Positions 5,404-61,230 of a DNA stretch of 64,000 nucleotides are shown here, piece after piece. The number at the start of each line of letters is the position of its first letter. Positions within the stretch are counted from its first letter, which is position 1. The notes under the pieces are model-generated. The model did no database searches. It was not told where the DNA came from and saw only the letters and a list, made by a program, of their open reading frames with translations. Where the stretch lies: NCBI GenBank assembly GCA_964501335.1, contig CAZCTC010000023.1:23216-87215 (forward strand), in the 5' to 3' direction. This DNA comes from an uncultured Anaerolineales bacterium (GTDB taxonomy: Bacteria > Chloroflexota > Anaerolineae > B4-G1 > SLSP01). The position numbers and the translations under genes are program-made.

Positions 5404-6717
5404 GTGAAACGTCGTAACTTAATGGTTGACAAGGAACCGGACTTGACCGAGGAAGAAATTCTGGAAAGCGATCTGCTGGATGAAGAGCCCATCGAAGGCG
5501 AAGAAACGCTCGAGGAACCCCTTGAAGCGGCGCCTTTACCTGGGTTGGCTGAAGAGTCCGGCGAAGAATATCTCCTGGCCCTGGGTTATGAGCGAGGGTT
5601 TGTAACCTACGAGGATATCCTTAAAATCTTCCCCGAAGTGGAAGAGGATATCGATCGCCTCGATGAAATTATCAGCGCGCTCGTGGACGCCGGGATCACG
5701 GTGGGCGGCCCCAATGAGGAACGCCCCGCGGCCCTGCGCCTGCGCGATGAATTGGATGAGCTGGAAATCGAAGATGCGGAAAATGAAGAAGATATCTACC
5801 GCACCATCGAAATCGATGATACCATTGGGCTCTATCTCAAGGAAATCGGTAAAGTCCCCCTGCTGACCGCCGAAGAGGAAGTCTCTTTAGCGCAGCGAAT
5901 GGAACAGGGGAAACGCGCTCAAGCCAAGCTCAAAGATCGCAAAATCTCGCGCGACGAACGTCGCGAATTGGAACGCCAAAACGAAGACGGGATCGCGGCG
6001 CGCGAACATCTCATTCGCGCCAATTCCCGCCTGGTCATCAGTGTGGCAAAAAAATACATCGGCCGCGGAGTCCCTTTCCTGGATCTGATCCAGGAAGGTA
6101 ACATTGGGTTGATCCGGGCGGCCAATAAATTTGATTATCAACGTGGCCATAAATTCTCTACTTACGCTACCTGGTGGATTCGCCAGGCAGTCACCCGGGC
6201 CATCGCCGATCAAAGCCGCACCATTCGCGTTCCCGTTCATATGGGCGATCAAATCAACAAATTGCTGCGAGTTTCGCATCAATTAACCCAACGTCTGGGA
6301 CGAGAACCTTCACCGGAAGAACTGGCAGTGGAACTCGATATTCCGCTGCGCAAGGTCGAACAAATGCTGGATGTGGCCCGCCGGCCGTTGTCGTTGGAAA
6401 TGCCCACCGATGACGAAGAAGAAAGTACCCTCGGCGATTTTGTCGAAGATACGGAAAGCCCGGCCCCCCCCGATGAAGTCAGCTCGGCCATGCTACGGGA
6501 ATTGCTGCTGGAAATCCTGACCGAATTGCCGCCGCGGGAGGTCAAAATCCTCCAGATGCGCTACGGCTTGTTGGACGGACAGACCTACACTCTGGAAGAA
6601 GTAGGTAAAAAATTGGGCGTCACCCGCGAACGGGTGAGACAAATTGAAGCGCAGGCGTTAAGCCGTCTTCGCCATCCCGCCCACGCCCGCCGACTTCGGG
6701 ATTTCCTGAGAAGTTAA
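5404..6717 (+). CDS. rpoD: Primary RNA polymerase sigma factor (sigma-70 family, RpoD/SigA)
   Basis: Acidic N-terminus. Region 2 motifs: [53 protein letters not shown]. Region 4: [25 protein letters not shown]. Confidence 0.95.
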
Positions 6718-6722
6718 AAAAA

Positions 6723-6748
6723 AGACGCTCACATGAGCGTCTTTTTTT
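6723..6748. terminator. Bidirectional intrinsic terminator between convergent rpoD and tsaC
   Basis: AGACGCTCACATGAGCGTCT hairpin with an A-run upstream and a T7 run downstream. Confidence 0.8.
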
Positions 6749-6795
6749 AATCTCGACATGCATGGTTAGCCCCAAAGACAAGGAAAAAACTCATT

Positions 6796-7863
6796 CTAAC
6801 CTTCTGAAAGGATGATCACCTTACCGCCCGCCGCGCGGGTCAGACGATCGCGTACTGCCAGCCCCAACCCGACAGTCCCAAAATCCCGGGCCAGAATCAC
6901 CTGAACCCCGGCCTGATCCAACTGGCGCAAACAGACAAAAAGCTGTTGGGCCACAGCTTCAACTGCCGCTTCGGCTCCGGGAATCGCCATCGGCACCGCC
7001 AAATCGCCTAAAACCTCCCGATCCTCTTCTGCCAACAGCAAACCGACCGGCACACCTGCACCCTGTAACCGCAACGTTTCAGCCCGCAGCGCCGCCCACA
7101 GGGCCCTCCGAGAGCCTTGATAAAGATAAAGAGCCGCCCGGGGCGCATAATGCTGTAATAAAGTCCCGGGAGCGGGCGCTCCCCCCCCCTCAGAAGGCAC
7201 GACCGGCCGTTCCAACAGCATGACCGGCCCCAAAACCGCCTCCAGTGCTTCCCGGCCGATTCCGCCCGGCCGCAACACCACCGGCGGCGACTCGACCAGC
7301 GACAATACCGTCGATTCGACCCCGATGGCTGTCGGCCCGCCATCCAGAATCATATCGATCCGCCCATCCAGATCAGCCAGCACATCCTCCGCCCGCGTCG
7401 GACTGAGTCGACCGAAACGATTCGCACTCGGCGCCGCAACCGGCCTCCCCGTCGCCTTGATCAAAGTCAGAGCCACCGGATGAGCCGGCATCCGCACCGC
7501 CACCGTCTCGCCGCCGGCCGTCACCGCCAACGGCACATTGGAATGGCGCGGCAGCACCAGAGTCAACGGCCCCGGCCAGAACTGCGCCGCCAGTTTTAAG
7601 GCCAACGGCGGAACCGTCGCCGCCACCCGCTCCAGATCGTTCAGCGAGGCTACATGTACAATCAACGGATCGAAAGAGGGACGCTCTTTCGCCGCAAAAA
7701 TTCCCTTTACCGCTTCCACATTGAAAGCATCGGCTCCCAGACCATAGACGGTCTCCGTCGGAAAAGCCACCAATCCACCAGAACGCAAAACAACGGCGGC
7801 CCCTTCAATCAGGGCCGCCGCCGGTTGTTCCGCATCAAGGGTCAACATCCGGGTCGTCTTCAT
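6796..7863 (-). CDS. tsaC: L-threonylcarbamoyladenylate synthase (long Sua5/YwlC form with a C-terminal Sua5 domain)
   Basis: YrdC-fold signature GGLVAFPTETVYGLGADAF...APSANRFGRLSPT, plus a ~130-aa C-terminal extension. Confidence 0.9.
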   Translation of the reverse strand: MKTTRMLTLDAEQPAAALIEGAAVVLRSGGLVAFPTETVYGLGADAFNVEAVKGIFAAKERPSFDPLIVHVASLNDLERVAATVPPLALKLAAQFWPGPLTLVLPRHSNVPLAVTAGGETVAVRMPAHPVALTLIKATGRPVAAPSANRFGRLSPTRAEDVLADLDGRIDMILDGGPTAIGVESTVLSLVESPPVVLRPGGIGREALEAVLGPVMLLERPVVPSEGGGAPAPGTLLQHYAPRAALYLYQGSRRALWAALRAETLRLQGAGVPVGLLLAEEDREVLGDLAVPMAIPGAEAAVEAVAQQLFVCLRQLDQAGVQVILARDFGTVGLGLAVRDRLTRAAGGKVIILSEG

Positions 7864-34082: not shown

Positions 34083-34094
34083 AACGCACTCTTC

Positions 34095-34276
34095 CCATCC
34101 CGCGCGTCACTTTTTTACCAGGAAAGTAATGGTTGCGGGACGCTAAAAAAGCTAATCGCACAGGTCGAAAAAAACCCTATTTTTGCGCGCATTCTTATGC
34201 GCGCAAAAATACAAACAAAAAACTCTCTCCATCCCGCGCGTCACTTTTTTACCAGGAAAGTAATGGTTGCGGAACG
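34095..34276 (+). repeat. Mosaic repeat tract: motif-B copy, CGCACAGGTCG block, R2 hairpin, second motif-B copy
   Basis: 48-bp direct repeat CCATCCCGCGCGTCACTTTTTTACCAGGAAAGTAATGGTTGCGG(G/A)ACG at 34095-34142 and 34229-34276 (1 mismatch). Hairpin TATTTTTGCGCGCA/TGCGCGCAAAAATA at 34178-34211. Confidence 0.9.
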
Positions 34277-34337
34277 TAAAAACTGTTTTTAATCTATGAA
34301 AATGAACAATCGCATCGGTCGATAAATTTCGGCCTTG

Positions 34338-39751: not shown

Positions 39752-39936
39752 GAAAAAAGCTGTATTTTTGCGCGCAAAAATACCAATAAAAAATCGACCT
39801 GTGCGGTTAGGCTGAGAAAAAAGCCCATATTTTCGGCGGCTTTCTGAAGCCGCCGAAAATATGAATAAAAATAATTCTCTCTGCCTGCTTCGCACGACGC
39901 GGCGATTCTCAGCGGGAAGGTACCAGTTGCGGGACG
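39752..39936 (+). repeat. Mosaic repeat tract: loop-less R2 palindrome, GACCTGTGCGGTT block, R2 hairpin, motif B
   Basis: GTATTTTTGCGCGCAAAAATAC (39762-39783). CATATTTTCGGCGGCTT-TCTG-AAGCCGCCGAAAATATG (39826-39863). Motif B at 39884-39936 ends 20 nt before the RR start codon. Confidence 0.9.
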
Positions 39937-39956
39937 CTAAATAGAAAGTTGCATTC

Positions 39957-40778
39957 ATGATCACTATGAAAATCACAGAAAAGACCAGACTGAACACCGC
40001 TCATATTTTAGTCGTCGACGACGAAACCACAGCCCGTGGAGCCATCGCTCGCGCCCTGCAATTGAGCGGTTATCAGGTCCAGGAAGCCGATTCCGGCGAA
40101 GAAGCCCTCCAATATCTCAATGCCCAACCTTACGATGTCATGCTGCTCGATCTCCGCATGCCCGGAATTGACGGCGTCACCGTCATGCGCCATATCCGCG
40201 CCGAACATCCCCACACCACCGTCATCGTCTTGACCGGTTATGCCACCCTGGAAAGCGCCATCGAAGCCGTCAAGGTAGGGGCGGCCGATTACTTGATGAA
40301 ACCTTGCAGCATCCGGGAAATCATCACCGCCGTGGAAAATGCCCATCAACGCCGCCAGGAACCGCGCCTGAGACAACAACTTATTGAAGTCATGCAAGAA
40401 GCCCTGGGAGCCCTGCAAACCCCCGCCCCGCCGCCCGTCGTCACGACAACACCACCATCCCATACCCCCAGCCCCTTACAACTGGATTCCGCCCGTCAGC
40501 AGCTTCTCTGGAACCCTATGAACAACACTGCCCCCCTCTCCGTCGAACTGACGACGCACGAAACAACCCTGCTTACCTACCAAATGGAACATCCCAACGC
40601 CATCCTCACCTGCAATGAACTCGCGACGGTGCTGGGATATGAGCAAATCGCAGCCTGGGAAGCCCAGGAGATCGTGCGTCCGCATATCTCCCGCCTCCGC
40701 CAAAAAATCCGCCGGCTCACCCCCGAAGAAATTATCTTCACCATCCGCGGCAAAGGCTACCGCTTCAACCTCCCCTGA
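39957..40778 (+). CDS. OmpR/PhoB-type response regulator (REC plus winged-helix) with a Pro-rich linker
   Basis: ILVVDDETTARGAI...LLDLRMPGIDG; C-terminal ...RPHISRLRQKI...IFTIRGKGYRF. Confidence 0.85.
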   Translation: MITMKITEKTRLNTAHILVVDDETTARGAIARALQLSGYQVQEADSGEEALQYLNAQPYDVMLLDLRMPGIDGVTVMRHIRAEHPHTTVIVLTGYATLESAIEAVKVGAADYLMKPCSIREIITAVENAHQRRQEPRLRQQLIEVMQEALGALQTPAPPPVVTTTPPSHTPSPLQLDSARQQLLWNPMNNTAPLSVELTTHETTLLTYQMEHPNAILTCNELATVLGYEQIAAWEAQEIVRPHISRLRQKIRRLTPEEIIFTIRGKGYRFNLP

Positions 40779-40801: not shown

Positions 40802-40867
40802 GGGCGGCCACATCGGGCCGCCCCTACCCAAATGCCGCCAATGTAGGGGTACCCCTTGTGGGTACCC
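40802..40867 (-). repeat. REPIN-like inverted palindrome doublet (R1), copy a
   Basis: GGGCGGCC-ACATCG-GGCCGCCC-CTAC...GTAG-GGGTACCC-CTTGTG-GGTACCC. Starts 24 nt after the RR stop. One palindrome carries the paired change GGGCGCCC to GGGTACCC. Confidence 0.85.
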
Positions 40868-41060: not shown

Positions 41061-41222
41061 TCACCCGCACAAAGCCCCTCTCCTGTAAGTTGCGCCGCGC
41101 TGGATCGGAAGAGAGAGTTTTTTTGTTGATGTTTTGGTGCGCCTCAGAAGGCGCACCAAAACATAGGCTTTTTCAGAGCCGCACAGGCGACGCAGGCTGT
41201 CTACTTGCCGCTGTCTACTTCC
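41061..41222 (-). repeat. Mosaic repeat tract in inverted orientation: motif B, R2 hairpin, CTGTGCGG block, GTAGACAG block
   Basis: Reverse complement reads GAAGTAGACAGCGGCAAGTAGACAGCC...CGCCTGTGCGGCTCTGAAAAAGCCT-ATGTTTTGGTGCGCCT-TCTG-AGGCGCACCAAAACAT-CAACAAAAAAACTCTCTC...ATCCAGCGCGGCGC...CTTTGTGCGGGTGA. Confidence 0.85.
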
Positions 41223-43573: not shown

Positions 43574-43639
43574 TAAATAACTCGAGTTGCTACCTCGATA
43601 AATCTGGCACATTATTCAAGATCCGCTGCATGCCATCCA

Positions 43640-43810
43640 GAAGTAGACAGCAGCAAGTAGACAGTAGACAGCAAAAATCTTCGCCTTACCGGCTCAATGA
43701 ACTGAAAAGCCCATTTTTTCGCACTGACAGTGCGAAAAAATGAATAAAAATTAATTTTTCTCCCCCTCCAGCGCGTCGTCTCTTACGGAGAAAATGCCCT
43801 GTGCGGGATG
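43640..43810 (+). repeat. Mosaic repeat tract: GTAGACAG block, R2 hairpin, motif B
   Basis: GAAGTAGACAGCAGCAAGTAGACAGTAGACAGC (43640-43672). CATTTTTTCGCAC-TGACA-GTGCGAAAAAATG (43712-43742). Motif B at 43766-43810 ends 15 nt before the cheW ATG. Confidence 0.9.
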
Positions 43811-43825
43811 TTACAAGAGGAAAAT

Positions 43826-44494: not shown

Positions 44495-45115
44495 ATGGCC
44501 TTCACCTACTTTTTCCGGGATCCGGAGACGCTGGCATTGATCGTCAAACACGCTTTGCCCGATCTCAGCACGCGCTGCTACATCAATATCTGGGATGCCG
44601 GCTGCGCGCACGGCCCGGAACCCTACTCCCTGGCCATTACGCTCCGGGAAAACATGGGGCGCTTCCTCTTCCGCAATGTACGCATCTACGCCACCGATCT
44701 GGATGAAAACGACACCTTCGGGGGGATCATCGCCCGCGGCTGTTACAACGAAGCCGAAACCCGCCGCATCCCGGCCGATATCTTGGCGCGCTACTTCGAT
44801 CCCCAACCCGAAGGATTTCAAGTAAAAGCAGAAATCCGGCAGACCGTCCGCTACCAGCGTCACGATCTGCTTTCCCTGCAGCCCATCCGGGAAGAGCTTG
44901 GACTGATTGTCTGCAAAAATGTCCTGTTGCACCTCTCGCCGGCCGATCGCATTGCCATCATCCACATGTTCCACGCCGCTCTGGCTGAAGGCGGTTATCT
45001 GGTCACCGAGCCCACCCAGAAACTGCCGCCCGAAGTCGAACCGTTCTTCCACCCCCTTACCGAGGTCGGACAGCTCTGGCAAAAGGTCACAGCCTCCGTC
45101 CCACAACTCTGTTGA
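44495..45115 (+). CDS. Short CheR-like SAM-dependent methyltransferase lacking the CheR N-terminal helical domain
   Basis: Begins directly at the TYFFRD motif ([13 protein letters not shown]...). [21 protein letters not shown]...VCKNVLLHL. Confidence 0.8.
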
Positions 45116-45152
45116 ACACATTCAACATAACAGTCAAAAAAGGGGGAACATC

Positions 45153-47720
45153 ATGAACGCTTTAAATGACATGAAAGTCGGTACCAAACTTATCCTCAGC
45201 TTCTTGCTGATTGCCTTCATCCTGGCCGGCGTCTCAGTGATCAACTACCTCAACATGAGCAACGTCGATAAAAATGTCGACGCGCTCTATAACGACCGCA
45301 TGCTTCCGGTCAACCAGCTGCAAAACGCCCGCGCCGCCATTCAGACCATCCGGGGCAATCTTTTTAAAATGCTCCTTTTCCCGGAAGAACGGGCCGATAA
45401 AGAAGCCGATATCAGAGACCAGATCGGCATCATCAACGATAACATCGCCGCCTACAAAGACACCTATCTGGTCGATGAAGAAAAAGCGGCTTTAAAAATA
45501 TTCGAGTCGGCCTGGACCACCTATCAAAACCGGGTCCTGGCCGACGTCGAATCGATCCAGGAAGGCGATGAGGCCGCCGCCCGCCAACATCTGCAGGAAG
45601 GCGGCCTTACCGACAATGCCCGCGAAGCCGTCGGCGACACCCTGGATGAACTGATCCGGATCAATTTAGACCTGGGCAAAGAAGCTCACGACAACGCTCA
45701 AATTACCTATAGCAACGCCAATCTGATCTCACTGATCGCCGGGATCTTCGGCGTTATTCTTGCCATCGGCCTCGGACTGGTCATCAACCAGGGCATCACC
45801 GGCCCCCTGAACCGGGGCGTCAAAATGATGGAAGAAATGAGCCTGGGACACCTGAGCATTCGTCTGCGCATGGACCGCAAAGACGAAATCGGCATCCTCG
45901 CCCGCGCCATGGATAGCTTCGCCGACGACCTGCAAGTCCTTGTCGTCGGTTCGCTCAAACGGATCGCCGACGGCGACCTTTCAGTCGAAGTCCCGATCAA
46001 AGACAACCGGGACGAAATCGGTCCGGCCATGAACCAGATCCTCGCCTCGCTGCGCGGCCTCATCGCCGAAGCCGGCACCCTCACCCGCGCCGCCGTCGAC
46101 GGCCGGCTCTCCGTCCGCGGCGAGGCCGGCAAATTCAAAGGCGGCTACCGCGAGATCGTCCAGGGCGTCAACGACACCCTCGATGCCGTCATCGGCCCTC
46201 TCAACGTCGCCGCCGAATATGTCGAACGCATCTCCCGCGGCGATATGCCCCCCGTTATCACCGACACCTACCACGGTGACTTCAACGAGATCAAGAACAA
46301 CCTCAATACCCTCATCGCCACCCTCAACAGCCTGATCGAAGAAGCCAAGATCCTCACCCGCGCCGCCGTGGACGGCAAACTCGCCACCCGTGGAGACAGC
46401 AATAAATTTAAAGGCGGTTACCGCGAAATCGTCCAGGGCGTCAACGATACCCTCGATGCCGTCATCGTCCCCCTCAATGTCGCCGCCAGATATGTCGAGC
46501 AAATCTCCCGTGGCGATATACCCCAACCCATCACCGACACCTACCACGGCGATTTCAATGAAATCAAAAACAATCTCAATACCCTCATCCTCACTCTTAA
46601 CAACCTTATCGGCGAAGCCAATATGCTGACCCGCGCCGCCGTCGACGGCAAACTCGCCACCCGCGGCGATGCAACCAAATTCAAAGGCGGCTACCGTGAA
46701 ATCGTCGGGGGCGTCAACGACACCCTCGATGCCGTCATCACCCCCCTCAATGTCGCTGCCGACTACGTCGACCGCATGGCCCGCGGCGAGATCCCCCAGC
46801 CCATCACCGACCGCTACAACGGCGACTTCGACACCTTCAAGAACAACCTCAACCGCCTGAGCGATCAGCTCCGCACCATGCTCCGCAACTTCAACGACGC
46901 CAGCAACAACCTCGCCTCCGCCGCCGCCGAAATCCTCGCCGCCACCACCCAGCAGGCCTCCGGCGCCAGCGAACAATCCGCCGCCATCTCCCAGACCACC
47001 ACCACCGTCGACGAGGTCAAGGCCATCGCCGAACAGGCCGCCTCCCGCGCTCAGGAAGTCGCCAACGCCGGCCAGCGCACCCTCGAAGTCTCCCGCACCG
47101 GCCAGAAAGCCGTCCAGGACACCATCGACAGCATGGCCCAGATCAAAGAACAGGTCGAAGGGATCGCCGAAAACATCGTCGCCCTCTCCGAACAGACCCA
47201 GCAGATCAGCGAGATCATCGCCTCCGTCAACGAGATCGCCGCCCAATCCAACATGCTCGCCCTCAACGCCTCCATCGAGGCCGCCCGCGCCGGCGAATAC
47301 GGCAAGGGCTTCGCCGTCGTCGCCATGGAAGTCCGCAATCTCGCCGAGCAATCTCGACAGGCCACCACCCAGGTCAAAACCATCCTCTCCGAAATCCAGC
47401 GCGCCACCAACGCCACCGCCATGGCCACCGAGGAAGGCGCCAAAGGCGTCGACATGGGCGTCCAGCTCGCCGCCCAGGCCCGGCTCTCCATCGACCAGAT
47501 GTACAGCGTGATCAGCGAATCCGCCCAGGCCGCCTCCCAGGTCCTCGCCGGCAGCCGCCAGCAGGTCTCCGGCGTCGAACAGATGGCCGTCGCCATGCAG
47601 AACATCAACCAGGCCACCGTCCAGAGCCTGGCCAGCACCCGGCAGGCCGAGCGCGCCGCCCAGAGCCTCAACGAACTCGCCCGCGCCCTCATCCAGAACG
47701 TCGCCCAATACCGGATCTAG
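45153..47720 (+). CDS. Methyl-accepting chemotaxis protein with a 4HB-like sensor, HAMP and three 91-aa tandem repeats
   Basis: TM1 ([18 protein letters not shown]), a ~190-aa helical sensor, TM2, HAMP, repeats at 46059-46877, and signalling domain [47 protein letters not shown] lies before the ATG at 45153. Confidence 0.9.
46761..47689 (+). repeat. 929-bp segment of MCP-1 that appears identical to 49730-50658 in MCP-2
   Basis: Translations are identical in three reading frames across the segment (sense frame plus two antisense shadow ORFs), and spot-checked nucleotide lines are identical. Confidence 0.85.
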
Positions 47721-47843
47721 GGATGGGACACACCCGGGATCTTTTAACAGAAATGGTTTTACAGGGCCGGTTTTGGGCGCCCACACAGGGGCGCCCCTAC
47801 ATCAGAGGGCCTTTTGTAGGGGCGGCCCGATGTGGCCGCCCTA
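47721..47843 (+). repeat. REPIN-like doublet (R1) with a 54-bp conserved leader, copy b
   Basis: Starts at the first base after the MCP-1 stop. GGGCGCCC-ACACAG-GGGCGCCC-CTAC-ATCAGAGGGCCTTTT-GTAG-GGGCGGCC-CGATGT-GGCCGCCC (47775-47841). The leader GGGATGGGACA...TTTTAACAGAAATGGTTTTA also occurs, reverse-complemented, at 60381-60435. Confidence 0.9.
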
Positions 47844-47850
47844 TAAAAAA

Positions 47851-48058
47851 AAGCCTCTGTTTTCGCTCTGATAAAAAGCCTATGTTTTCGCGGGCTTTCT
47901 GAAGCCCGCGAAAACATAAATAAAAAATTCTCTTTCCCTATCTGGCGCGTCGCCTTTTACCTTAAAAAGGCCTGTTGCGGGACGTAAAAAGCCGACATTT
48001 AAACAAACAACCGCACCGGCAAAAAACATTACGTTTTACGTTTCACGTTTTACGTTTC
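47851..48058 (+). repeat. Mosaic repeat tract: partial R2 arm, R2 hairpin, motif B, CCGCAC block, four ACGTTTY heptads
   Basis: Hairpin TATGTTTTCGCGGGCTT-TCTG-AAGCCCGCGAAAACATA (47881-47918). Motif B at 47940-47984. ACGTTTT ACGTTTC ACGTTTT ACGTTTC at 48031-48058. 47873-48052 is duplicated at 51019-51197. Confidence 0.9.
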
Positions 48059-48076
48059 AGATCCCGGAGGTACATC

Positions 48077-50689
48077 ATGAACAACCTGAGGATTGGCGTC
48101 AAATTAATTGGTGCATTCATCATCGTCGCCCTGATTGCCGGCATCACCGGCGCCGTCGGCTACGTGAGCCTGTCCAGCGTTACCGACTCTTACAACATGG
48201 TCACGGAAAACTACCTGCCTGCCGTCCATGCCCTGGGCGTCATCAACGAAGCTCAAACCGCCATCGACTCCGGGTACAACAACCTCGCCAATCCCATGTT
48301 GGAAGACCCCCAACTGCGCAAGGCCGAATTCACCAATATCGATAGGGCCTACGAACGGTACACAGCGGCTTTAAAGATCTATGAACCGACCATCCTCCCC
48401 GGCACCCAGGAAGAAAGTCTCTTCGATGACTTTGAAATCAAATGGAAAAACTGGGAAACCGATTACCAAACCATCGTCGATCTGGCCCGGGAAGAAGATC
48501 AACTGCGCGCCGGGAACATTTCGACCAACGACGCTCGCATCCAGGAAATCGACGATCAAATCTATTCAGCCGTACTCGACATTGATGACAGCTTTACGGC
48601 GGCCGAAACGGCGCTCGCAGCATTGGTCGATTACAATTACACCCAGGCCGGCCTGGCGGATAAATCCGCCGATGCCCAATCTGAAAATTCCCGCAACCTC
48701 ATCCTCGCCGTCATCGGCTTTGCCATGATCACCGCCATCATCCTGGGCTGGGTTCTTTCCAACAGCATCACCAGCCCTCTGAGCCAGGGCGTCCAAATGA
48801 TGCAGGAACTGAGCCTGGGACACCTCGGAATCCGCCTCTATATGACTCGCAAAGACGAGATCGGGGTGCTCGCCCGCGCCATGGACCGCTTCGCCGACGA
48901 CCTCCAGGTTGTCGTGGTCGGCTCACTGAAACGGATCGCCGACGGCGACCTCTCCATGGAAATCACCCCCAAAGACGGCCAGGATGAGATCGCTCCGGCC
49001 CTCAAACAGATCGTCGCCGCCCTCCGCGGCCTCATCGCCGAAGCCGGCACCCTCACCCGCGCCGCCGTCGACGGCCGGCTCTCCGTCCGCGGCGAGGCCG
49101 GCAAATTCAAAGGCGGCTACCGCGAGATCGTCCAGGGCGTCAACGACACCCTCGACGCCGTCATCGGCCCCCTCAATGTCGCCGCCGAATATGTCGAACG
49201 CATCGCCCGCGGCGATATGCCCCCCACCATCACCGACAAATACAACGGCGACTTCAATGAGATCAAGAACAACCTCAACACCCTCATCACCACCCTCAAC
49301 CTCTTCGCCGAAGAAAACGCCCGCATGAGCCGCGAACAGAACGCCGGCGACCTCGACGCCCGCATCAATGTCGAGCGCTTCTCCGGCTTCTACCGCCAGA
49401 TCGCCCAGGGCGTCGTCGATCAGGTCTTCGAGCACATCCGCATCAAACGGATGATCACCGAGGTCGTCGGCCGCTACGGCGAAGGCGACTTCTCCGCCAC
49501 CATGGAAAAACTCCCCGGCAAGAAGGCCTTCATCAACGAACGACTCGATACCGTCAAAGCCAACCTCAGCAGCCTCGTCGAAGAGGTCAACACCCTCTCC
49601 CGCGCCGCCGTCGACGGCAAACTCGCCACCCGCGCCAACGCCAATCGCTTCAAAGGCGGCTGGAACGCCCTCGTCCGCGGCCTCAACGACATCCTCGACT
49701 CGGTCATCACCCCCCTCAACGTCGCCGCCGACTACGTCGACCGCATGGCCCGCGGCGAGATCCCCCAGCCCATCACCGACCGCTACAACGGCGACTTCGA
49801 CACCTTCAAGAACAACCTCAACCGCCTGAGCGATCAGCTCCGCACCATGCTCCGCAACTTCAACGACGCCAGCAACAACCTCGCCTCCGCCGCCGCCGAA
49901 ATCCTCGCCGCCACCACCCAGCAGGCCTCCGGCGCCAGCGAACAATCCGCCGCCATCTCCCAGACCACCACCACCGTCGACGAGGTCAAGGCCATCGCCG
50001 AACAGGCCGCCTCCCGCGCTCAGGAAGTCGCCAACGCCGGCCAGCGCACCCTCGAAGTCTCCCGCACCGGCCAGAAAGCCGTCCAGGACACCATCGACAG
50101 CATGGCCCAGATCAAAGAACAGGTCGAAGGGATCGCCGAAAACATCGTCGCCCTCTCCGAACAGACCCAGCAGATCAGCGAGATCATCGCCTCCGTCAAC
50201 GAGATCGCCGCCCAATCCAACATGCTCGCCCTCAACGCCTCCATCGAGGCCGCCCGCGCCGGCGAATACGGCAAGGGCTTCGCCGTCGTCGCCATGGAAG
50301 TCCGCAATCTCGCCGAGCAATCTCGACAGGCCACCACCCAGGTCAAAACCATCCTCTCCGAAATCCAGCGCGCCACCAACGCCACCGCCATGGCCACCGA
50401 GGAAGGCGCCAAAGGCGTCGACATGGGCGTCCAGCTCGCCGCCCAGGCCCGGCTCTCCATCGACCAGATGTACAGCGTGATCAGCGAATCCGCCCAGGCC
50501 GCCTCCCAGGTCCTCGCCGGCAGCCGCCAGCAGGTCTCCGGCGTCGAACAGATGGCCGTCGCCATGCAGAACATCAACCAGGCCACCGTCCAGAGCCTGG
50601 CCAGCACCCGGCAGGCCGAGCGCGCCGCCCAGAGCCTCAACGAACTCGCCCGCGCCCTGCTCCAGAACGTCGCCCAATATCGAATCTAG
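48077..50689 (+). CDS. Methyl-accepting chemotaxis protein (paralogue of MCP-1 with a different sensor domain)
   Basis: TM1 ([18 protein letters not shown]), a ~220-aa helical sensor, TM2, HAMP, and repeat units. The C-terminal ~310 aa are identical to MCP-1. GGAGG RBS lies before the ATG at 48077. Confidence 0.9.
49730..50658 (+). repeat. 929-bp segment of MCP-2 that appears identical to 46761-47689
   Basis: See 46761-47689. Identity ends 31 nt before each stop codon (ALIQNV vs ALLQNV). Confidence 0.85.
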
Positions 50690-50720: not shown

Positions 50721-50787
50721 GGGCGCCCACGCCGGGGCGCCCCTACATCAGAGGGCCTATTGTAGGGGCGGCCCGATGTGGCCGCCC
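50721..50787 (+). repeat. REPIN-like doublet (R1), copy c
   Basis: GGGCGCCC-ACGCCG-GGGCGCCC-CTAC-ATCAGAGGGCCTATT-GTAG-GGGCGGCC-CGATGT-GGCCGCCC, 32 nt after the MCP-2 stop. Confidence 0.9.
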
Positions 50788-50789
50788 TA

Positions 50790-51197
50790 TAAAAAATTCT
50801 CTCTGTCGCCTGGCATCCAGCGCGTCGATTCGAACCGGACAAAGTGTAAGCTTTACGGTTAGCCCGAAAGGCTCAAGAAAAAAGCCCATATTTTGGGCGG
50901 CTTTCTGAAGCCGCCCAAAATATAAATTAAAAAAAATCTCTCTGTCTATCTGGCGCGTCGCTTTTTGCCGAAAAAATGCCTGTTGCGGGGGCATAAAAAA
51001 CCGGGTTTTAGCACTCTCAAAAAGCCTATGTTTTCGCGGGCTTTCTGAAGCCCGCGAAAACATAAATAAAAAATTCTCTTTCCCTATCTGGCGCGTCGCC
51101 TTTTACCTTAAAAAGGCCTGTTGCGGGACGTAAAAAGCCGACATTTAAACAAACAACCGCAGGCAAAAAAACATTACGTTTTACGTTTCACGTTTTA
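50790..51197 (+). repeat. Mosaic repeat tract with two complete tandem units plus a truncated motif B and three ACGTTTY heptads
   Basis: Truncated motif B near 50813-50830. Hairpin ATATTTTGGGCGGCTT-TCTG-AAGCCGCCCAAAATAT (50888-50923). Motif B at 50948-50990. Hairpin at 51027-51064. Motif B at 51086-51130. Heptads at 51176-51196. Confidence 0.9.
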
Positions 51198-51211: not shown

Positions 51212-53551
51212 ATGTCCCTCAGTGCACAAATTCGGGCACAATTGATCAATAGCTTTCGGGCAGAACTCGCCGAACACATCCAAACGATGACGGACGGCCT
51301 GCTCGCCCTGGAACAACATAAACTTACTCCCGAGCAGGAACCGGAAACGCTCCAGAGCCTCTTCCGTGCCGCCCATAGCCTTAAAGGCGCCGCCCGTGCC
51401 GTCGGTGTGACCGCCATCGAGCAGTTGGGCCACGCCCTGGAAGATGTCCTGGACAGTCTGCAACGCCGTCGGCTCACTCCCACACCAGAACTCTTCTCAG
51501 CCTGCTATCGCACATTGGACACCATCCAGGTGGTCCAGACCGCCTATGAAGCCGGCGCGATCACCCCTCCGATTCAGGTCCTGCAGGCACTCACGGCGCT
51601 GGAACCCTTCCAAAGCAACGCCGCTCCGGCCGGCGACCCTCCAGCGGCGAAAGCGGAAAACGGCGGAGATCCCCCGTCCAATCAAACTCCGGCTCAACCC
51701 CCTGTACCGCCAACTCCACCGGCACCGCCCACACCTCCGGCCTCCAGCCCGGCGCCCGTGCCCGCCGCCAACAACGACACCATCCGCATCCATGCCAGCA
51801 AACTGGATGCCCTGCTCGCCCAGTTGAGTGAATTGCACGTCGCCCGGATTCGCGCCGAACAACGCACCGTCCAGGTCCATCAGGCCCAGGAAGAAATGAG
51901 CCAGTGGCAAAAAGAATGGCTGTCCGTCCGCGAAAGCTACAACCGTCTGGTCCGCCGCTCTGCCAATCGCACCGGCGAACGCGACACCCTCACCCTTCAT
52001 GACACAGACCGACTGCTGGCCTATCTGGAAAACAGCCAGGAACGGCTCCACGAAATGAGCTCCCTGGTCAATCATCTGGCCCGCGAATACAGCAACGACT
52101 CCATGCAACTCTCCATGGCCATCGACGCCCTGGAAGAAGATGTCAAACGGGCCCGCCTGCTCCCACTCAGCACCATCACCGCCCCCTTCGGCCGAATGGT
52201 GCGCGATCTCGCTCAGACCTCCGGAAAATCGGTAACCCTGCAAATCATCGGCAGCGATGTCGAACTGGATAAACGGGTTCTGGAACAGATCAAAGATCCC
52301 TTGATCCATCTGCTGCGCAATGCTGTCGATCACGGCATCGAAACAGCAGAACAACGCACCGCCGCCGGAAAATCGCTCAACGGCCGCATCGTTCTCAAAG
52401 CCGAACAGGCCGGCAAAGAGATCCTCCTCACGGTCAGCGACGACGGAAACGGCCTCAATCTCGAATCCATCCGTCAGGTCGCCGCCCAGCGCGGCCTGGG
52501 CGATCCCGCCGCCATGAACGACGCCGACCTGGCCGAAGTGATCTTCCATGCCGGCGTCTCCACCAGCCAGACAGTCACCGACGTTTCGGGACGCGGCGTC
52601 GGCCTGGATGTGGTCCGGCGCAATGTCGAAGCCCTGCAAGGCCGGATCGCCGTCACCTGGAAAGCCGGAGCCGGTTCGACCTTCACCCTGACCCTGCCCC
52701 TCGCCCTGACCAGCTCCCGGGCCCTGATGGTCAAAGCCGCGCAGCAATCCTTTGCCATTCCGGTCGGCGCCATCGAACGGATCGTACCGGCCGGCCGCGA
52801 ACAGATCCTCTCCGTCGGCGGCCATGAAACCCTGCAATACAACGGCCGCCCACTGCCGGTCGTCCATCTTTGCGATGTCCTCAACATCCCCCGCAACGGG
52901 GAGATGCACAACGACGGACGCTTCACCATCCTGATCCTGGCCTCCGTCGAACGCAAAATGGCCTTCGTCGTCAGTGAACTGGTCGGCGAACAGGAAGTGG
53001 TCATCAAAGGGCTCGGCCGTCAGATCCAACGGGTCAACGGAATCGCCGGCGCCACCATCCTCGGCAACGGAGACGTCCTCCTGATCCTCAATGTCGGGGA
53101 TCTGATCAAACTGGCGCTGCGCAGTGAACGGCGAGCCATCGTGACCACCAACGGAGAAACCGGCAACGTTTCCTCTCCAACCGCCACCAAACAGATCCTG
53201 ATCGTGGATGATTCCATCACCACCCGCACCCTGGAAAAGAACATCCTCGAAGCCGCCGGTTTTGTCGTCTGGGTCGCCACCGACGGGCAGGAAGCCCTTT
53301 CCCACATCATGGAAAACGGCCTGCCCGACCTGGTCATCTCGGATGTCTCAATGCCGCGCATCACCGGCGTCGAACTGACCCGCCACATCAAAACCGACCC
53401 CCGCACCGCGGCCATTCCGGTCATCCTCGTCACCTCGCTCGACTCGCCGGAAGACAAAGCCCGCGGCATCGAAGCCGGCGCCGACGCCTACATCATCAAA
53501 AGCCATTTCGACCAGGACAACCTCCTGGAAACTATCCATCAATTGATTTGA
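51212..53551 (+). CDS. cheA: CheA histidine kinase with a fused C-terminal receiver and a Pro-rich linker in place of P2
   Basis: Hpt FRAAHSLKGAARAVG. Linker PPVPPTPPAPPTPPASSPAPVP. HATPase (HLLRNAVDHGIE, SDDGNGL, GRGVGLDVV). CheW-like P5. REC (ILIVDDSITTR...VISDVSMPRITG). Confidence 0.9.
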   Translation: MSLSAQIRAQLINSFRAELAEHIQTMTDGLLALEQHKLTPEQEPETLQSLFRAAHSLKGAARAVGVTAIEQLGHALEDVLDSLQRRRLTPTPELFSACYRTLDTIQVVQTAYEAGAITPPIQVLQALTALEPFQSNAAPAGDPPAAKAENGGDPPSNQTPAQPPVPPTPPAPPTPPASSPAPVPAANNDTIRIHASKLDALLAQLSELHVARIRAEQRTVQVHQAQEEMSQWQKEWLSVRESYNRLVRRSANRTGERDTLTLHDTDRLLAYLENSQERLHEMSSLVNHLAREYSNDSMQLSMAIDALEEDVKRARLLPLSTITAPFGRMVRDLAQTSGKSVTLQIIGSDVELDKRVLEQIKDPLIHLLRNAVDHGIETAEQRTAAGKSLNGRIVLKAEQAGKEILLTVSDDGNGLNLESIRQVAAQRGLGDPAAMNDADLAEVIFHAGVSTSQTVTDVSGRGVGLDVVRRNVEALQGRIAVTWKAGAGSTFTLTLPLALTSSRALMVKAAQQSFAIPVGAIERIVPAGREQILSVGGHETLQYNGRPLPVVHLCDVLNIPRNGEMHNDGRFTILILASVERKMAFVVSELVGEQEVVIKGLGRQIQRVNGIAGATILGNGDVLLILNVGDLIKLALRSERRAIVTTNGETGNVSSPTATKQILIVDDSITTRTLEKNILEAAGFVVWVATDGQEALSHIMENGLPDLVISDVSMPRITGVELTRHIKTDPRTAAIPVILVTSLDSPEDKARGIEAGADAYIIKSHFDQDNLLETIHQLI

Positions 53552-53553
53552 CT

Positions 53554-53737
53554 TATATTTTCGCGCGCGCCAGAGGCGCGCGCGAAAATATAATAAATAC
53601 AAAAATACAGTTAACCCGGAAAAGTGGAAAAAGAGCCTGTGTTTTGGCGCGTTTTCTGAAGCGCGCCAAAACACCAAAAAAATTCTCTCTCCATCCAGCG
53701 CGGCGCTCTTGACCGGAAAAGTGCCATTTGCGGGACG
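53554..53737 (+). repeat. Mosaic repeat tract: two R2 hairpins plus motif B
   Basis: TATATTTTCGCGCGCGCC-AGA-GGCGCGCGCGAAAATATA (53554-53592, begins 3 nt after the cheA stop). GTGTTTTGGCGCG...CGCGCCAAAACAC (53639-53674). Motif B at 53691-53737 ends 39 nt before the cheY ATG. Confidence 0.9.
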
Positions 53738-53776
53738 AAAAAAGCAGTTTTCAACCCGAAAAAATAAGGGGTAAAT

Positions 53777-55215: not shown

Positions 55216-55431
55216 CAGGCTGGAAAACAAGAGGAAAAACTATGTTCTCGCGGGCTTTCCGAAGTCGCTCCAAACATAAATAAAAATCGACCTGTGCGGT
55301 CAGCCTGGAAAACAAGAGAAAAAGCCATGTTTTCGCGGGCTTTCCGAAGCCCGCGAAAACATAAATAAAAAAAATTCTCTCCTCCCATCCAGCGCGGCGC
55401 TTTTTACCAGGAAATCATCGAGTGCAGGACG
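55216..55431 (+). repeat. Mosaic repeat tract: ~90-bp tandem duplication (decayed plus intact R2 hairpin) and motif B
   Basis: Decayed hairpin at 55241-55278. GACCTGTGCGGTCAGCCTGG block. Intact ATGTTTTCGCGGGCTT-TCCG-AAGCCCGCGAAAACAT (55327-55362). Motif B at 55385-55431. Confidence 0.85.
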
Positions 55432-55511
55432 TAACAACTGGCGGTTAAGCAGACCGACGAACCACCACACAGATTGTCAAAAAATTCAGAGGCCCTCCAG
55501 GAGGCTATGCT

Positions 55512-56628: not shown

Positions 56629-56631
56629 GAA

Positions 56632-56904
56632 GAAGTAGAGAGCAGCAAGTAGACAGTAGACAGCAAAAACCCGCCTGTGGGGTTGGTCTGGAAAAAAGCC
56701 CCTGGTTGCGGCGGCTTCAGAAAGCCACCGCAACCAGGGATAAAATAACCTCTCTCCTCCTGCTTCGCACCGCGCGGCGCTTTTCACCAAACAAAAGCCC
56801 TGTGCGGGACGTTAAAACGCCAACCGCACAGGTCAAAAAAACATTTTTTCGCACGCCGCAGACGGCGTGCGAAAAAATGAATAAAAACAACCCTTTGCGG
56901 GACG
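56632..56904 (+). repeat. Mosaic repeat tract in a convergent gap: GTAGACAG block, CCTGTGGGG block, two R2 hairpins, motif B, truncated motif B
   Basis: GAAGTAGAGAGCAGCAAGTAGACAGTAGACAGC (56632-56664). Hairpin at 56700-56739 (loop CAGA, one C/A mismatch). Motif B at 56759-56811. CCTGTGCGG/CCGCACAGG stem (56799-56807 and 56824-56832). Hairpin at 56842-56879 (17-bp perfect). CTTTGCGGGACG at 56893-56904. Confidence 0.9.
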
Positions 56905-59278: not shown

Positions 59279-60073
59279 CTAATCTCCCAGCTGTGACATC
59301 CGCCCCGACCCGGCGATCCGGGAATCCACCTTCGGTCGGCCGCTGTAATAGATGTTGCCGCTGCCCATAATCGACCCGTCGAGCGATTCCTTCACCGCCA
59401 GCGTCACAGAACCGCTGCCCATCACCTGCGCGCTGGCCGAATCGCTGGACATCTCACTGCCGCGATAGTTGCCCGAGCCCATAATCGTCACCGTCTGCTG
59501 ATCCACCGCGCCGCCTTCGATATTGACGTTTCCCGAGCCCGGAATCGAAACCTCCAGCGCATCCCCATCCACCTGGCCCACCGTAATGGAACCGGACCCC
59601 GCCAGATTGATCTCGGTATTGTCCGCTGCCACCCCGTCGATATTGACATCGCCCGAGCCGGCCAGTCGCACATCGAAAGACTTCGCCGTCAATTCCGGCG
59701 CATCGATCGAGCCGCTGCCCGTAAGGATCACCGCATCCAGCGACTTCACGGTGACATAGAACTTCACCGGCTGCGTATGCCTGAAGATCGTCCCCGATTC
59801 CGTACTGATCACCAGTTTTCCATTATGGACTTCGGTGTGGAGGTAAGGGAGTAAATTGTCCTCAGCCTCGATCTTTAGCGACTCTTCGTCCCCCACCGTG
59901 ATGATCACATCCCCAAACGTGGCATTTTCCAACGAGGTGAAATCCTTAACCGCGCGCTCTTCCTCGACCACATGGCCCGATCCCCGCACGCCGACCATGG
60001 CGCACCCCACACTCAACACCAGCATCCCCAGCAACAACAGGCCGATCATCATTTCCCGTAACATCGCATCCAT
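59279..60073 (-). CDS. DUF2807 / head-GIN-domain lipoprotein-like protein
   Basis: Signal/lipobox-like N-terminus (LLLLGMLVLSVGCA). Eight GSG(S/D/N)(I/V/Y) beta-helix repeats. Confidence 0.8.
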   Translation of the reverse strand: MDAMLREMMIGLLLLGMLVLSVGCAMVGVRGSGHVVEEERAVKDFTSLENATFGDVIITVGDEESLKIEAEDNLLPYLHTEVHNGKLVISTESGTIFRHTQPVKFYVTVKSLDAVILTGSGSIDAPELTAKSFDVRLAGSGDVNIDGVAADNTEINLAGSGSITVGQVDGDALEVSIPGSGNVNIEGGAVDQQTVTIMGSGNYRGSEMSSDSASAQVMGSGSVTLAVKESLDGSIMGSGNIYYSGRPKVDSRIAGSGRMSQLGD

Positions 60074-60182
60074 CCTCCTTTGAAGTTTGGAGCGTTCCCG
60101 CTCACGAGTATAGAATACCTCGCCCCGGGAAAAGATACCTATCGGTCGGCTATCAATCAGCTAACAAAAATCCATCATCCAG

Positions 60183-60608
60183 AGCAGACAGCAGCAAGTA
60201 GACAGTAGACAGCCATTAAAAAAGCATTTTTTGCCTGGAACCCGCTCCATGCCGGGCGCCCCACAAAAAATGCTCTAAAATGAATGTTAGCGCGCACAAC
60301 TTCTGGGATCAAGGACGGCCACATCGGGCCGCCCCTACAAAAAGGCCCTCTGATGTAGGGGCGCCCCTGCGTGGGCGCCCTAAACTGGCCTGATAAAACC
60401 ATTTCTGTTAAAACACCCCGGCCATGTCCCATCCCTTGTGCACGCTAACAAATAAATCATCTCTGCGGTGAGCCTGGAAAAGCGGGAGAAAAAAGCCTGT
60501 GTTTTTGCGCGCATAAGAATGCGCGCAAAAACACAAACAAAAAAAACGTTCTCCCCCCATCCAGCACGTCTATTCTTCCTGTCTACTGTCTACTTGCTGC
60601 TGTCTACT
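60183..60608. repeat. Composite repeat tract bounded by inverted GTAGACAG blocks (MITE-like outline)
   Basis: AGCAGACAGCAGCAAGTAGACAGTAGACAGC (60183-60213) and its reverse complement (60579-60608). Interior: R2-type stem with a 30-nt insert (60224-60273), R1 doublet plus leader in reverse orientation (60312-60435), CTCTGCGGTGAGCCTGG block, R2 hairpin (60499-60534), truncated motif B (60558-60571). Confidence 0.85.
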
Positions 60609-60612
60609 ATAC

Positions 60613-61230
60613 CTATTCATGCGTGACCAGCTTATACCCCTGCCCGCGCACGGTCAACAACAACTGCGGATTGGCCGGATCGGGCTCCAGCCTGGACCGC
60701 AGCCGCCGCACCAGATTCTCAATCTGATAATCGAAAACCCCTTCCTGATACTCCGGCCAGACCGCCAGTCCGATCTCATCCCGGCTACAGATCCGCCCGC
60801 GCCGCTCATACAGATAAACCACCAGCTCGAACTCTTTCGGCGAAAGCGCCACCGCCTCCCGATTGACCCGTACCACGCCGGCCGCCGAATCGACCTCCAG
60901 GGTCGGAAACGGCGTGTCGTAGACCGTCACATCCGGATCGTGAAAAACCAGCGTCACATCGCCGATCATCACCCGATCCCCATCCTGCAACTCCACCGGC
61001 GCCAATACCCGCTCGCCGTTGCAAAAAGTCCCATTCGTACTGCCCAGATCTTCCAGCACCGTCCGCCAGCCCTCCCGCCGGACCCGCGCATGTTCCCGCG
61101 AAACCCGCTTGCTGGTAATCACGATGCCGTTCTCCATGGCCCGGCCCATCGAAATTTCATCCGTGCGCAAAGGGTGTTCCCGTCCGGTCGGATCGGTAAA
61201 AAACGGCACCTCATGCCCCGTTTCCATCAC
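60613..61230 (-). CDS. FHA-domain protein fused to an OmpR-type winged-helix DNA-binding domain
   Basis: FHA (ISMGRAMENGIVITSKRVSREHARV...DLGSTNGTFCNGERV). C-terminal LSPKEFELVVYL...LVRRLRSRLEPDPANPQLLLTVRGQGYKL. Confidence 0.85.
   Translation of the reverse strand: MMETGHEVPFFTDPTGREHPLRTDEISMGRAMENGIVITSKRVSREHARVRREGWRTVLEDLGSTNGTFCNGERVLAPVELQDGDRVMIGDVTLVFHDPDVTVYDTPFPTLEVDSAAGVVRVNREAVALSPKEFELVVYLYERRGRICSRDEIGLAVWPEYQEGVFDYQIENLVRRLRSRLEPDPANPQLLLTVRGQGYKLVTHE

Follow-up and report, generated by a model that had tools for sequence, protein, structure and literature searches.

GTAG-headed inverted doublets in a signalling gene region of an uncultured Anaerolineales bacterium as probable members of the GTAG-tagged REP superfamily

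What are the four inverted palindrome pairs that stand between the chemotaxis and signalling genes of an uncultured Anaerolineales bacterium, and how did they get there? In this study, we analysed a stretch of 64,000 nt from this organism (contig CAZCTC010000023.1, positions 23,216 to 87,215; the whole stretch is called the window), for which a preliminary description had proposed doublets of repetitive extragenic palindromic (REP) units, similar to REPINs and of the kind associated with REP-associated tyrosine transposases (RAYTs). Our analysis leads to the same answer: the doublets are very probably REPs of the GTAG-tagged superfamily, present as inverted Y/Z heterodimers in a REPIN-like arrangement. 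This classification is supported by a multi-copy unit family, by compensatory changes, by RAYT loci elsewhere and by relatives in which the sites are empty.

Eight units of 25-26 nt each were identified in the window, each with GTAG at the head of a hairpin whose G+C stem has 8 bp and whose loop has 5-6 nt. GTAG is unpaired and abuts the stem foot in all eight, and the foot always consists of three consecutive G-C pairs (GGG...CCC). A search of the window with the pattern GTAGGGGCGSCC-N6-GGSCGCCC, allowing up to three mismatches, gave 10 matches versus 0.02 expected; seven of these are real units, and the other three arise where the palindromic Y units match themselves in a shifted register. 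The looser pattern GTAGGGG-N3-CC-N6-GG-N3-CCC returned exactly the eight units (0.03 expected). All of them are paired in four inverted doublets with the GTAG heads inward, no singlets being present in the window, and each doublet joins one Y and one Z unit on opposite strands across a spacer of 15, 15, 15 and 16 nt (doublets a to d). Reading of the sites and both pattern searches bear out the four positions given before and the layout of two facing units (GTAG-stem-N6-stem, seen as CTAC-N15-GTAG), with the units of d starting at 60313, a spacer of 16 nt in d and a loop of 5 nt in the Y unit of a. The 12-mer GTAGGGGCGGCC at 40275-40286 was rejected as a further unit: it is located inside the response-regulator gene, codes for VGAADY of the receiver domain and forms no hairpin, and its occurrence there is a coincidence.

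The Z type (GTAGGGGCGGCCCGATGTGGCCGCCC) has the structure GTAGGGGCGGCC-CGATGT-GGCCGCCC and is identical in a, b and c, with a single-base difference in d; the Y type reads GTAGGGGCGCCC-N6-GGGCGCCC, its loop differing among b, c and d. In doublet a, the Z unit GTAGGGGCGGCCCGATGTGGCCGCCC (40802..40827, minus strand) is followed by a 15-nt spacer (40828..40842), whose sequence is unlike the spacers of b, c and d, and by a variant Y unit GTAGGGGTACCCCTTGTGGGTACCC (40843..40867, plus strand). This variant has the structure GTAGGGGTACCC-CTTGT-GGGTACCC with a 5-nt loop, GGGTACCC replacing GGGCGCCC. The paired change reported for copy a is therefore real and keeps the palindrome, since CG is changed to TA on both arms, i.e. 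by four substitutions. Doublet b is preceded by a 54-nt leader (GGGATGGGACA...TTTTAACAGAAATGGTTTTA...; 47721..47774, plus strand) and consists of the Y unit GTAGGGGCGCCCCTGTGTGGGCGCCC (47775..47800, minus strand), the spacer ATCAGAGGGCCTTTT (47801..47815), which is the loop of a long hairpin, and the Z unit GTAGGGGCGGCCCGATGTGGCCGCCC (47816..47841, plus strand), both units being found by pattern search and DNA folding. Doublet c comprises the Y unit GTAGGGGCGCCCCGGCGTGGGCGCCC (50721..50746, minus strand), the spacer ATCAGAGGGCCTATT (50747..50761; alignment A1) and the same Z unit as in a and b (50762..50787, plus strand), after which the 3' half of an unrelated 120-nt module follows at 50789-50843. 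Doublet d was located by pattern search and is inverted: its Z unit with one G.T pair (GTAGGGGCGGCCCGATGTGGCCGTCC; 60313..60338, minus strand), its 16-nt spacer (60339..60354), which on the minus strand equals the b/c spacer plus one extra T, its Y unit GTAGGGGCGCCCCTGCGTGGGCGCCC (60355..60380, plus strand) and a leader copy (60381..60436, minus strand) give the order leader-Y-spacer-Z on the minus strand, as in b. The G.T wobble described for this copy was confirmed at the third pair from the foot, with GGCCGTCC as 3' arm. Some 45 nt past the Z unit of d, the sequence GTGGGGCGCCCGGCATGGAGCGGG (~60243-60268, minus strand) resembles a decayed Y-type unit; with a GTGG head, one G lost and a non-complementary 3' arm, it failed the one-mismatch head search and is unproven as a unit.

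As single-stranded DNA, the single units are predicted to fold at -8.6 (the Y unit of copy a) to -11.1 kcal/mol. In b, c and d, the entire doublet also folds on itself as a single long hairpin with imperfect pairing (-28.6 kcal/mol as DNA, ~-50 as RNA, z -4 to -6).

The same unit family is widespread. A genome scan with one genome per species and the unit pattern GTAGGGGC-NNN-C ... G-NNN-GCCC gave at least 120 loci, multi-copy in many genomes and belonging to many phyla; the matches listed include Pyrinomonadaceae and Thermoanaerobaculia (Acidobacteriota), Chloroflexota, Geobacteraceae, Pelobacter, Desulfuromonadales, Nitrospirota, Cyanobacteria and Planctomycetota. Of 147 units among the matches listed, 146 have complementary bases at the two S positions that the pattern leaves free. 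For alignment A2, partner units were picked solely by their head GTAGGGG; their stems include GGGCAGGC/GCCTGCCC, GGGCAACC/GGTTGCCC, GGGCACCC/GGGTGCCC and GGGCGACC/GGTCGCCC. In this alignment, 82% of the cells pair versus 71% in shuffles, both sides are changed in 51 cells versus 17.3 (0 of 500 shuffles as high), and the covariation score is 0.307 versus 0.116 (again 0 of 500), slid partners reaching at most 0.127. The covariation thus keeps pairing and not sequence, and therefore points to a folded single strand and not to a duplex binding site. This also bears on the idea that the doublets are operators or other binding sites for a chemotaxis or signalling regulator, such as the OmpR-type or FHA-OmpR-type proteins encoded beside a and d. 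Although the doublets cluster in a signalling gene region and two of the four adjoin winged-helix regulator genes, they are located downstream of genes and not at promoter positions, and the unit family occurs across phyla in unrelated contexts, so that together with the covariation an operator role is highly improbable.

The exact 26-nt Z unit including its loop was found, among the matches listed, as a single copy each in a Thermoanaerobaculia metagenome-assembled genome (MAG) and a Dehalococcoidia MAG (L016, 3856-3881, and L078, 1681-1706). Either the sequence is strongly constrained or a RAYT-REP pair has moved between phyla. A search of full-text literature for the unit sequence gave primer coincidences only. 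Upstream of GTAG, C is found at -2 in 78 of 145 and T at -1 in 97 of 145 units (loci L003-L122, among the matches listed), an enrichment that would fit, by analogy, the CT cleavage site of TnpA-REP (PMC8266576). In the window, T directly precedes GTAG in seven of the eight units, and C at -2 is absent.

In other organisms, the unit family was found beside or inside genes of RAYTs, which are domesticated transposases of the HUH/Y1 type, at five loci (L083, L124, L134, L136 and L137). At L083, from a deltaproteobacterial MAG, an open reading frame (ORF) of 207 aa (6438-7061) matches Pfam Y1_Tnp above cut-off, the NCBIfam REP-associated tyrosine transposase with an E value of 7e-14 and also E. 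coli RayT; its protein has 2848 homologues at E<=1e-10, many of them named 'REP element-mobilizing transposase RayT'. This gene has GTAGGGGC units on both flanks and carries in frame, just past the HUH motif, a heads-outward dimer (6702-6775). At L124, an exact Z unit and a partner are located immediately upstream of the RAYT N-terminus. Three homologues on long contigs (L134, L136 and L137) have GTAGGGGC units within the gene after HUH (~5265, ~5274 and ~5323), L136 with an additional dimer 10 nt upstream. In-frame unit insertion was thereby seen in all four full-length RAYT genes examined in other genomes. Also, among the homologues listed (P0121-P0240), 73 of the 92 with both anchor motifs contain a VGA...APT insert, the translated dimer, with peptides of the type VGAGPRACP...GQPQGVAPT. 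In-frame REP insertion between HuH and Y in the tnpA-REP gene is reported to be unique to TnpA-Y1 subclass 2.4, and the REPs of this subclass combine a GT[AG]G foot with three G-C pairs at the bottom of the stem (PMC6006769). This subclass corresponds to RAYT Group 4 of Bertels et al. 2017 (PMC6006769, PMC5581495), which is reported to be common in Cyanobacteria, Chlorobia and Caldilineae (PMC5581495).

The preliminary description had proposed to inspect orthologous intergenic regions for empty sites, and such sites were found. L126, with the closest CheA homologue (77% identical) and situated on another contig of the same metagenome, has an MCP-to-CheA gap of 43 nt, and the syntenic che operons L131 and L132 (CheA 59-61% identical) have gaps of 15 and 46 nt; no GTAGGGGC units occur in these three loci. 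The corresponding gaps in the window are 356 and 522 nt and are filled by doublets and other repeats. Because the syntenic operons are compact and have no units, the doublets appear to have been added to the chemotaxis operon specifically in this lineage; the comparison spans large distances.

How many additions took place can be judged from the surroundings of the copies. MCP-1 and MCP-2 (44907-47720 and 47975-50689) are tandem paralogues with internal 273-nt repeats (HAMP_2 units), almost identical through the stop codon (alignment A1); their C-terminal regions have 97% identity over at least 300 nt, and their 3' ends are identical, which indicates that the duplication was recent or that gene conversion took place. 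Doublets b and c, with 92% identity over 86 nt, have the 3' flank TATAAAAAA..CTCTGT in common, and c is preceded by a shortened, diverged form of the leader of b (alignment A1). Doublets b and d including their leaders form an inverted repeat of 97 nt with 89% identity, so that leader and doublet (~123 nt) were copied as a block at least once. The leader had been described as shared only by b and d; this stands for the full form, which has two copies in the window, and needs amendment for its remnant at c. Doublet d lies in an unrelated place, 9.5 kb from c, and copy a has neither leader nor flanks in common with the others. At least three independent placements are needed for the window: a, b together with c, and d.

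An alternative explanation of this pattern is that the doublets are immobile relics, i.e. REPs by descent whose RAYT was lost or never active here, and which were spread by local segmental duplication and by recombination among repeat-rich spacers. In favour of such relics, the four copies are confined to 20 kb, the remaining 44 kb of the window and the adjoining 5.8 kb on its left side being free of them; b and c adjoin the identical MCP ends and have their flank in common, the leader links b and d, and the spacers are mosaics of other repeated modules. Loss of REPtrons is also known for some strains (PMC3733652). However, copy a lacks any common flank or leader, and because its Y variant differs by four coordinated substitutions, its origin from a different master copy would fit better than stepwise mutation in place. 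The inverted orientation and distance of d likewise speak against local duplication, and the Z units, three identical and one with a single-base change, suggest recent copying or ongoing correction. We therefore consider immobile relics unlikely, at a level of doubt that still leaves them some weight.

The genomic setting raises the question of a function in RNA. According to Pfam and ORF analysis, the doublets occupy a signalling and chemotaxis gene region. The gene for an OmpR-type response regulator (39957-40778) is followed by doublet a and then by genes for CheW, CheR-TPR, CheW and CheR. MCP-1 is followed by the leader with doublet b, MCP-2 by doublet c, CheA (51212-53551), response regulators and CheB. 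On the minus strand, an FHA-OmpR gene (60613-61230) and a DUF2807 gene (59279-60073) enclose doublet d and its leader. The stop-codon distances given previously proved right: the leader of b starts at 47721, directly after the TAG stop of MCP-1 (47718-47720), doublets a and c start 24 and 32 nt past the stops ending at 40778 and 50689, and d lies 232 nt from the FHA gene stop (60613-60615, minus strand), or 176 nt when the leader is counted. The tandem MCP paralogues with their near-identical ends also are the reason why a public assembly of the sample breaks here; two contigs of the JGI metagenome 3300022666, seen in this one sample only, match the window, and both public assemblies end at or near the repeats.

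It might be argued from this setting that the doublets are purely functional hairpins, i.e. transcription stops or stabilisers of mRNA 3' ends that arose and were kept for operon expression without any transposase. All four are intergenic, downstream of a stop codon and between co-directional genes; three of four have the same orientation relative to transcription, with Y first in b, c and d; their folds are predicted to be stable, and in d the strand with GTAG, where the G.T pair is tolerated, is also the sense strand. On the sense strand, however, the sequences 3' of the doublets are AATCCTGAC (a), TATAAAAAA (b and c) and TTGATCCCAG (d), no U-tract follows in any of the four cases, and no doublet appeared in the terminator scan. 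As hairpins without a U-tract they are therefore not canonical intrinsic (Rho-independent) terminators, and this candidate was ruled out. Rfam covariance models gave no matches at gathering thresholds over the whole window and none on the doublets at E<=1. Copy a is moreover oriented oppositely (Z first), evolution in situ leaves unexplained why the same 26-mer occurs in unrelated phyla and near RAYT genes, and no role in termination is known for GTAG as a conserved, unpaired head. As a complete explanation, purely functional hairpins are thus improbable; as a consequence of the insertions, such a function could coexist with the REP explanation.

Several observations weigh against the REP explanation or limit it. 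No RAYT gene is present in the window, as noted before: a phmmer search with a cognate-type RAYT gave no ORF match at E<=10. Nor was one found in ~22 kb of further sequence of the organism (L001, L128 and L129), the ~80 kb covered in all holding eight units in four spacers, and a search for the organism's own RAYT by the peptides which its Y and Z units would encode found none among 120 listed homologues. The RAYTs near the unit family in other genomes show the published hallmarks of subclass 2.4 (RAYT Group 4), an assignment resting on two diagnostic features. The heads-inward layout of the window is a minority layout of the family, with 16 heads-inward cases versus 70 heads-outward, besides 51 single and 10 tandem units, among the matches listed. 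In a metagenome scan of a collection without the source sample, L124 was the only heads-inward doublet with the Z loop of the window. No target-site signature is common to all four copies. Copy a forms two separate unit hairpins and no long REPIN hairpin because its Y variant cannot pair with Z; the paired change therefore preserves the unit hairpin and not the doublet hairpin, and in this copy conservation acts at the unit level. Doublets b and c, given their near-identical MCP ends, doublets and 3' flank, are probably one insertion copied with the tandem MCP duplication and not two transpositions.

If the doublets are REPs of the GTAG-tagged superfamily, their spread may be pictured from the biochemistry of TnpA-REP (PMC3333891, PMC8266576). 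Each unit would fold on single-stranded DNA; a cognate RAYT would bind the hairpin with GTAG as guide, and would cleave and rejoin nearby, at CT or a similar dinucleotide. Units or doublets could thereby be copied into new intergenic sites, and copies may persist after stop codons because insertions are tolerated there. Recognition would differ between the bulged REPs of E. coli and those whose perfect palindrome follows GTAG without a gap, as in the window (PMC3333891, PMC8266576). Once transcribed with the upstream mRNA, the hairpins may protect its 3' end as barriers to 3' exonucleases, or may stall the polymerase without a U-tract.

The spacers that hold the doublets contain further repeats. 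More puzzling than the doublets is an unrelated intergenic module of ~120 nt with at least 11 copies in the window, at 34166-34283, 39815-39942, 41063-41176 (minus strand), 43702-43817, 47870-47991, 50876-50999, 51017-51137, 53628-53744, 55315-55438, 56689-56818 and 60486-60581 (minus strand). Partial copies are located at 34084-34149, 50789-50843, 55235-55287 and 56836-56896, and in L129, from the same organism to the left of the window, the module occurs at 123-171, 1129-1200, 2406-2550 and 2591-2672. It consists of an A-run, a 16-19-bp hairpin (e.g. ATGTTTTCGCGGGC-TTTCTGA-AGCCCGCGAAAACAT) with clear compensatory stem changes, an A-rich stretch, TTCTCTC, CCAGCGCG(G/T)CGC and TTGCGGGACGTAAAAA, and is usually found upstream of signalling genes. 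According to the terminator scan, hairpin and T-run read as an intrinsic terminator on one strand only, which is the one opposite to the gene downstream; the consensus fold has 30 predicted pairs on this opposite strand versus 20 on the other. The module has no Rfam match and is absent from ~1 Mb of loci of other organisms. It could be an antisense small-RNA cassette, a promoter or insulator element, or a repeat similar to miniature inverted-repeat transposable elements (MITEs).

Another repeat of 30-39 nt, AGTAGACAGCAGCAAGTAGACAGTAGACAG, is built of GTAGACAG-like sub-repeats and occurs in three spacers (43639-43677, 56631-56669 and 60180-60218) and inverted at 60572-60608; around doublet d, the inverted pair, 366 nt apart, brackets the whole spacer between the FHA and DUF2807 genes. 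Also, MCP-2 and CheA have three to four tandem heptamers ACGTTT(T/C) shortly before their ribosome-binding sites (~48026-48059 and ~51174-51197), in connection with a 157-nt segment that contains them and has 97% identity between the regions upstream of the two genes (47859-48015 and 51005-51161). These heptamers are a possible binding site of a regulator. A more far-reaching idea, to which we give little credence, is that the heads-inward Y/Z heterodimer is not just a selfish repeat that is tolerated but, with the leader and the 120-nt hairpin module, makes up a lineage-specific modular kit. Such a kit would have divided a chemotaxis operon that was compact in its ancestral state into units under separate control; the doublet would be a barrier for RNA 3' ends or processing, and the module beside it a cassette for an antisense small RNA, a terminator or a promoter.

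With these doublets, GTAG-tagged REP dimers gain a further host lineage, which is uncultured and probably belongs to the Chloroflexota; the CheA homologues with a source name, called Anaerolineae or Chloroflexi, point weakly to this phylum. One narrow unit type (GTAG-GGGC...GCCC, sometimes as an identical 26-mer) recurs across phyla together with one RAYT clade, and this recurrence bears on the question whether the inheritance of RAYT-REP pairs is strictly vertical. For annotation, it is of importance that such hairpins break assemblies, seed spurious ORFs and mark the 3' ends of genes.

In comparison with known systems, the doublets of the window are a known, well-described and widespread class of REPs in a new host, and no new mechanism is required. 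In Di Nocera, De Gregorio & Rocco 2013 (PMC3733652), GTAG-tagged REPs are described from more than 80 species in both dimer orientations, with frequent heterodimers, complementary stem variants and G.T pairs, mostly downstream of ORFs; of the 24 numbered families, some are listed in deltaproteobacteria (Geobacter uraniireducens, GTAG-11) and in Chloroflexi (GTAG-23). In the terms of that source, the window doublets are 'TT' heterodimers of this superfamily: in both cases an unpaired GTAG stands at one end of a G+C stem-loop (6-13 bp, in a palindrome of 20-40 nt, in the superfamily), sub-families differ by complementary stem changes, G.T pairs occur, and units in opposite orientation follow ORFs, in spacers where the two genes are co-directional or convergent. 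The TT dimers described there, with GTAG inside, usually have variable spacers, whereas three of the four spacers in the window are the same, and the uncultured host lies outside the coverage given there.

With the REPIN-RAYT systems of Bertels & Rainey 2011 (PMC3116915), the window shares inverted REPs with a short spacer, a long hairpin (in three of four copies) and the dominance of doublets over singlets (all eight units). In those systems the REP type is linked to a RAYT; for the unit family of the window, this link is seen in other genomes. Copy a differs in keeping the unit hairpins only. For RAYT Group 4, which the RAYTs of the family resemble, Bertels et al. 2017 found a link to repeats of no more than moderate abundance, in contrast to Groups 2 and 3 (PMC5581495). 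The REPtrons of TnpA-Y1 subclass 2.4 (Quentin et al. 2018, PMC6006769) have a 'canonical long REP' with a GT[AG]G foot and three G-C pairs, as in the window units, in-frame REP insertions between HuH and Y, as in the RAYTs beside the unit family elsewhere, and a scattered distribution over phyla, as the unit family has; in contrast, the window has no tnpA-REP gene, and the likeness is based on two features.

The E. coli BIMEs (bacterial interspersed mosaic elements) and TnpA-REP (PMC3333891, PMC8266576) also combine Y and Z subtypes in opposite orientation with a GTAG head, and E. coli REPs are likewise located after genes, where they stabilise the upstream mRNA. They differ by longer, imperfect palindromes with a conserved bulge and by a group 2 enzyme (PMC3333891, PMC8266576). 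With perfect palindromes directly after GTAG, the window units are nearer to the REPs of Stenotrophomonas maltophilia, which have a 16-nt perfect palindrome with a 3-nt interruption.

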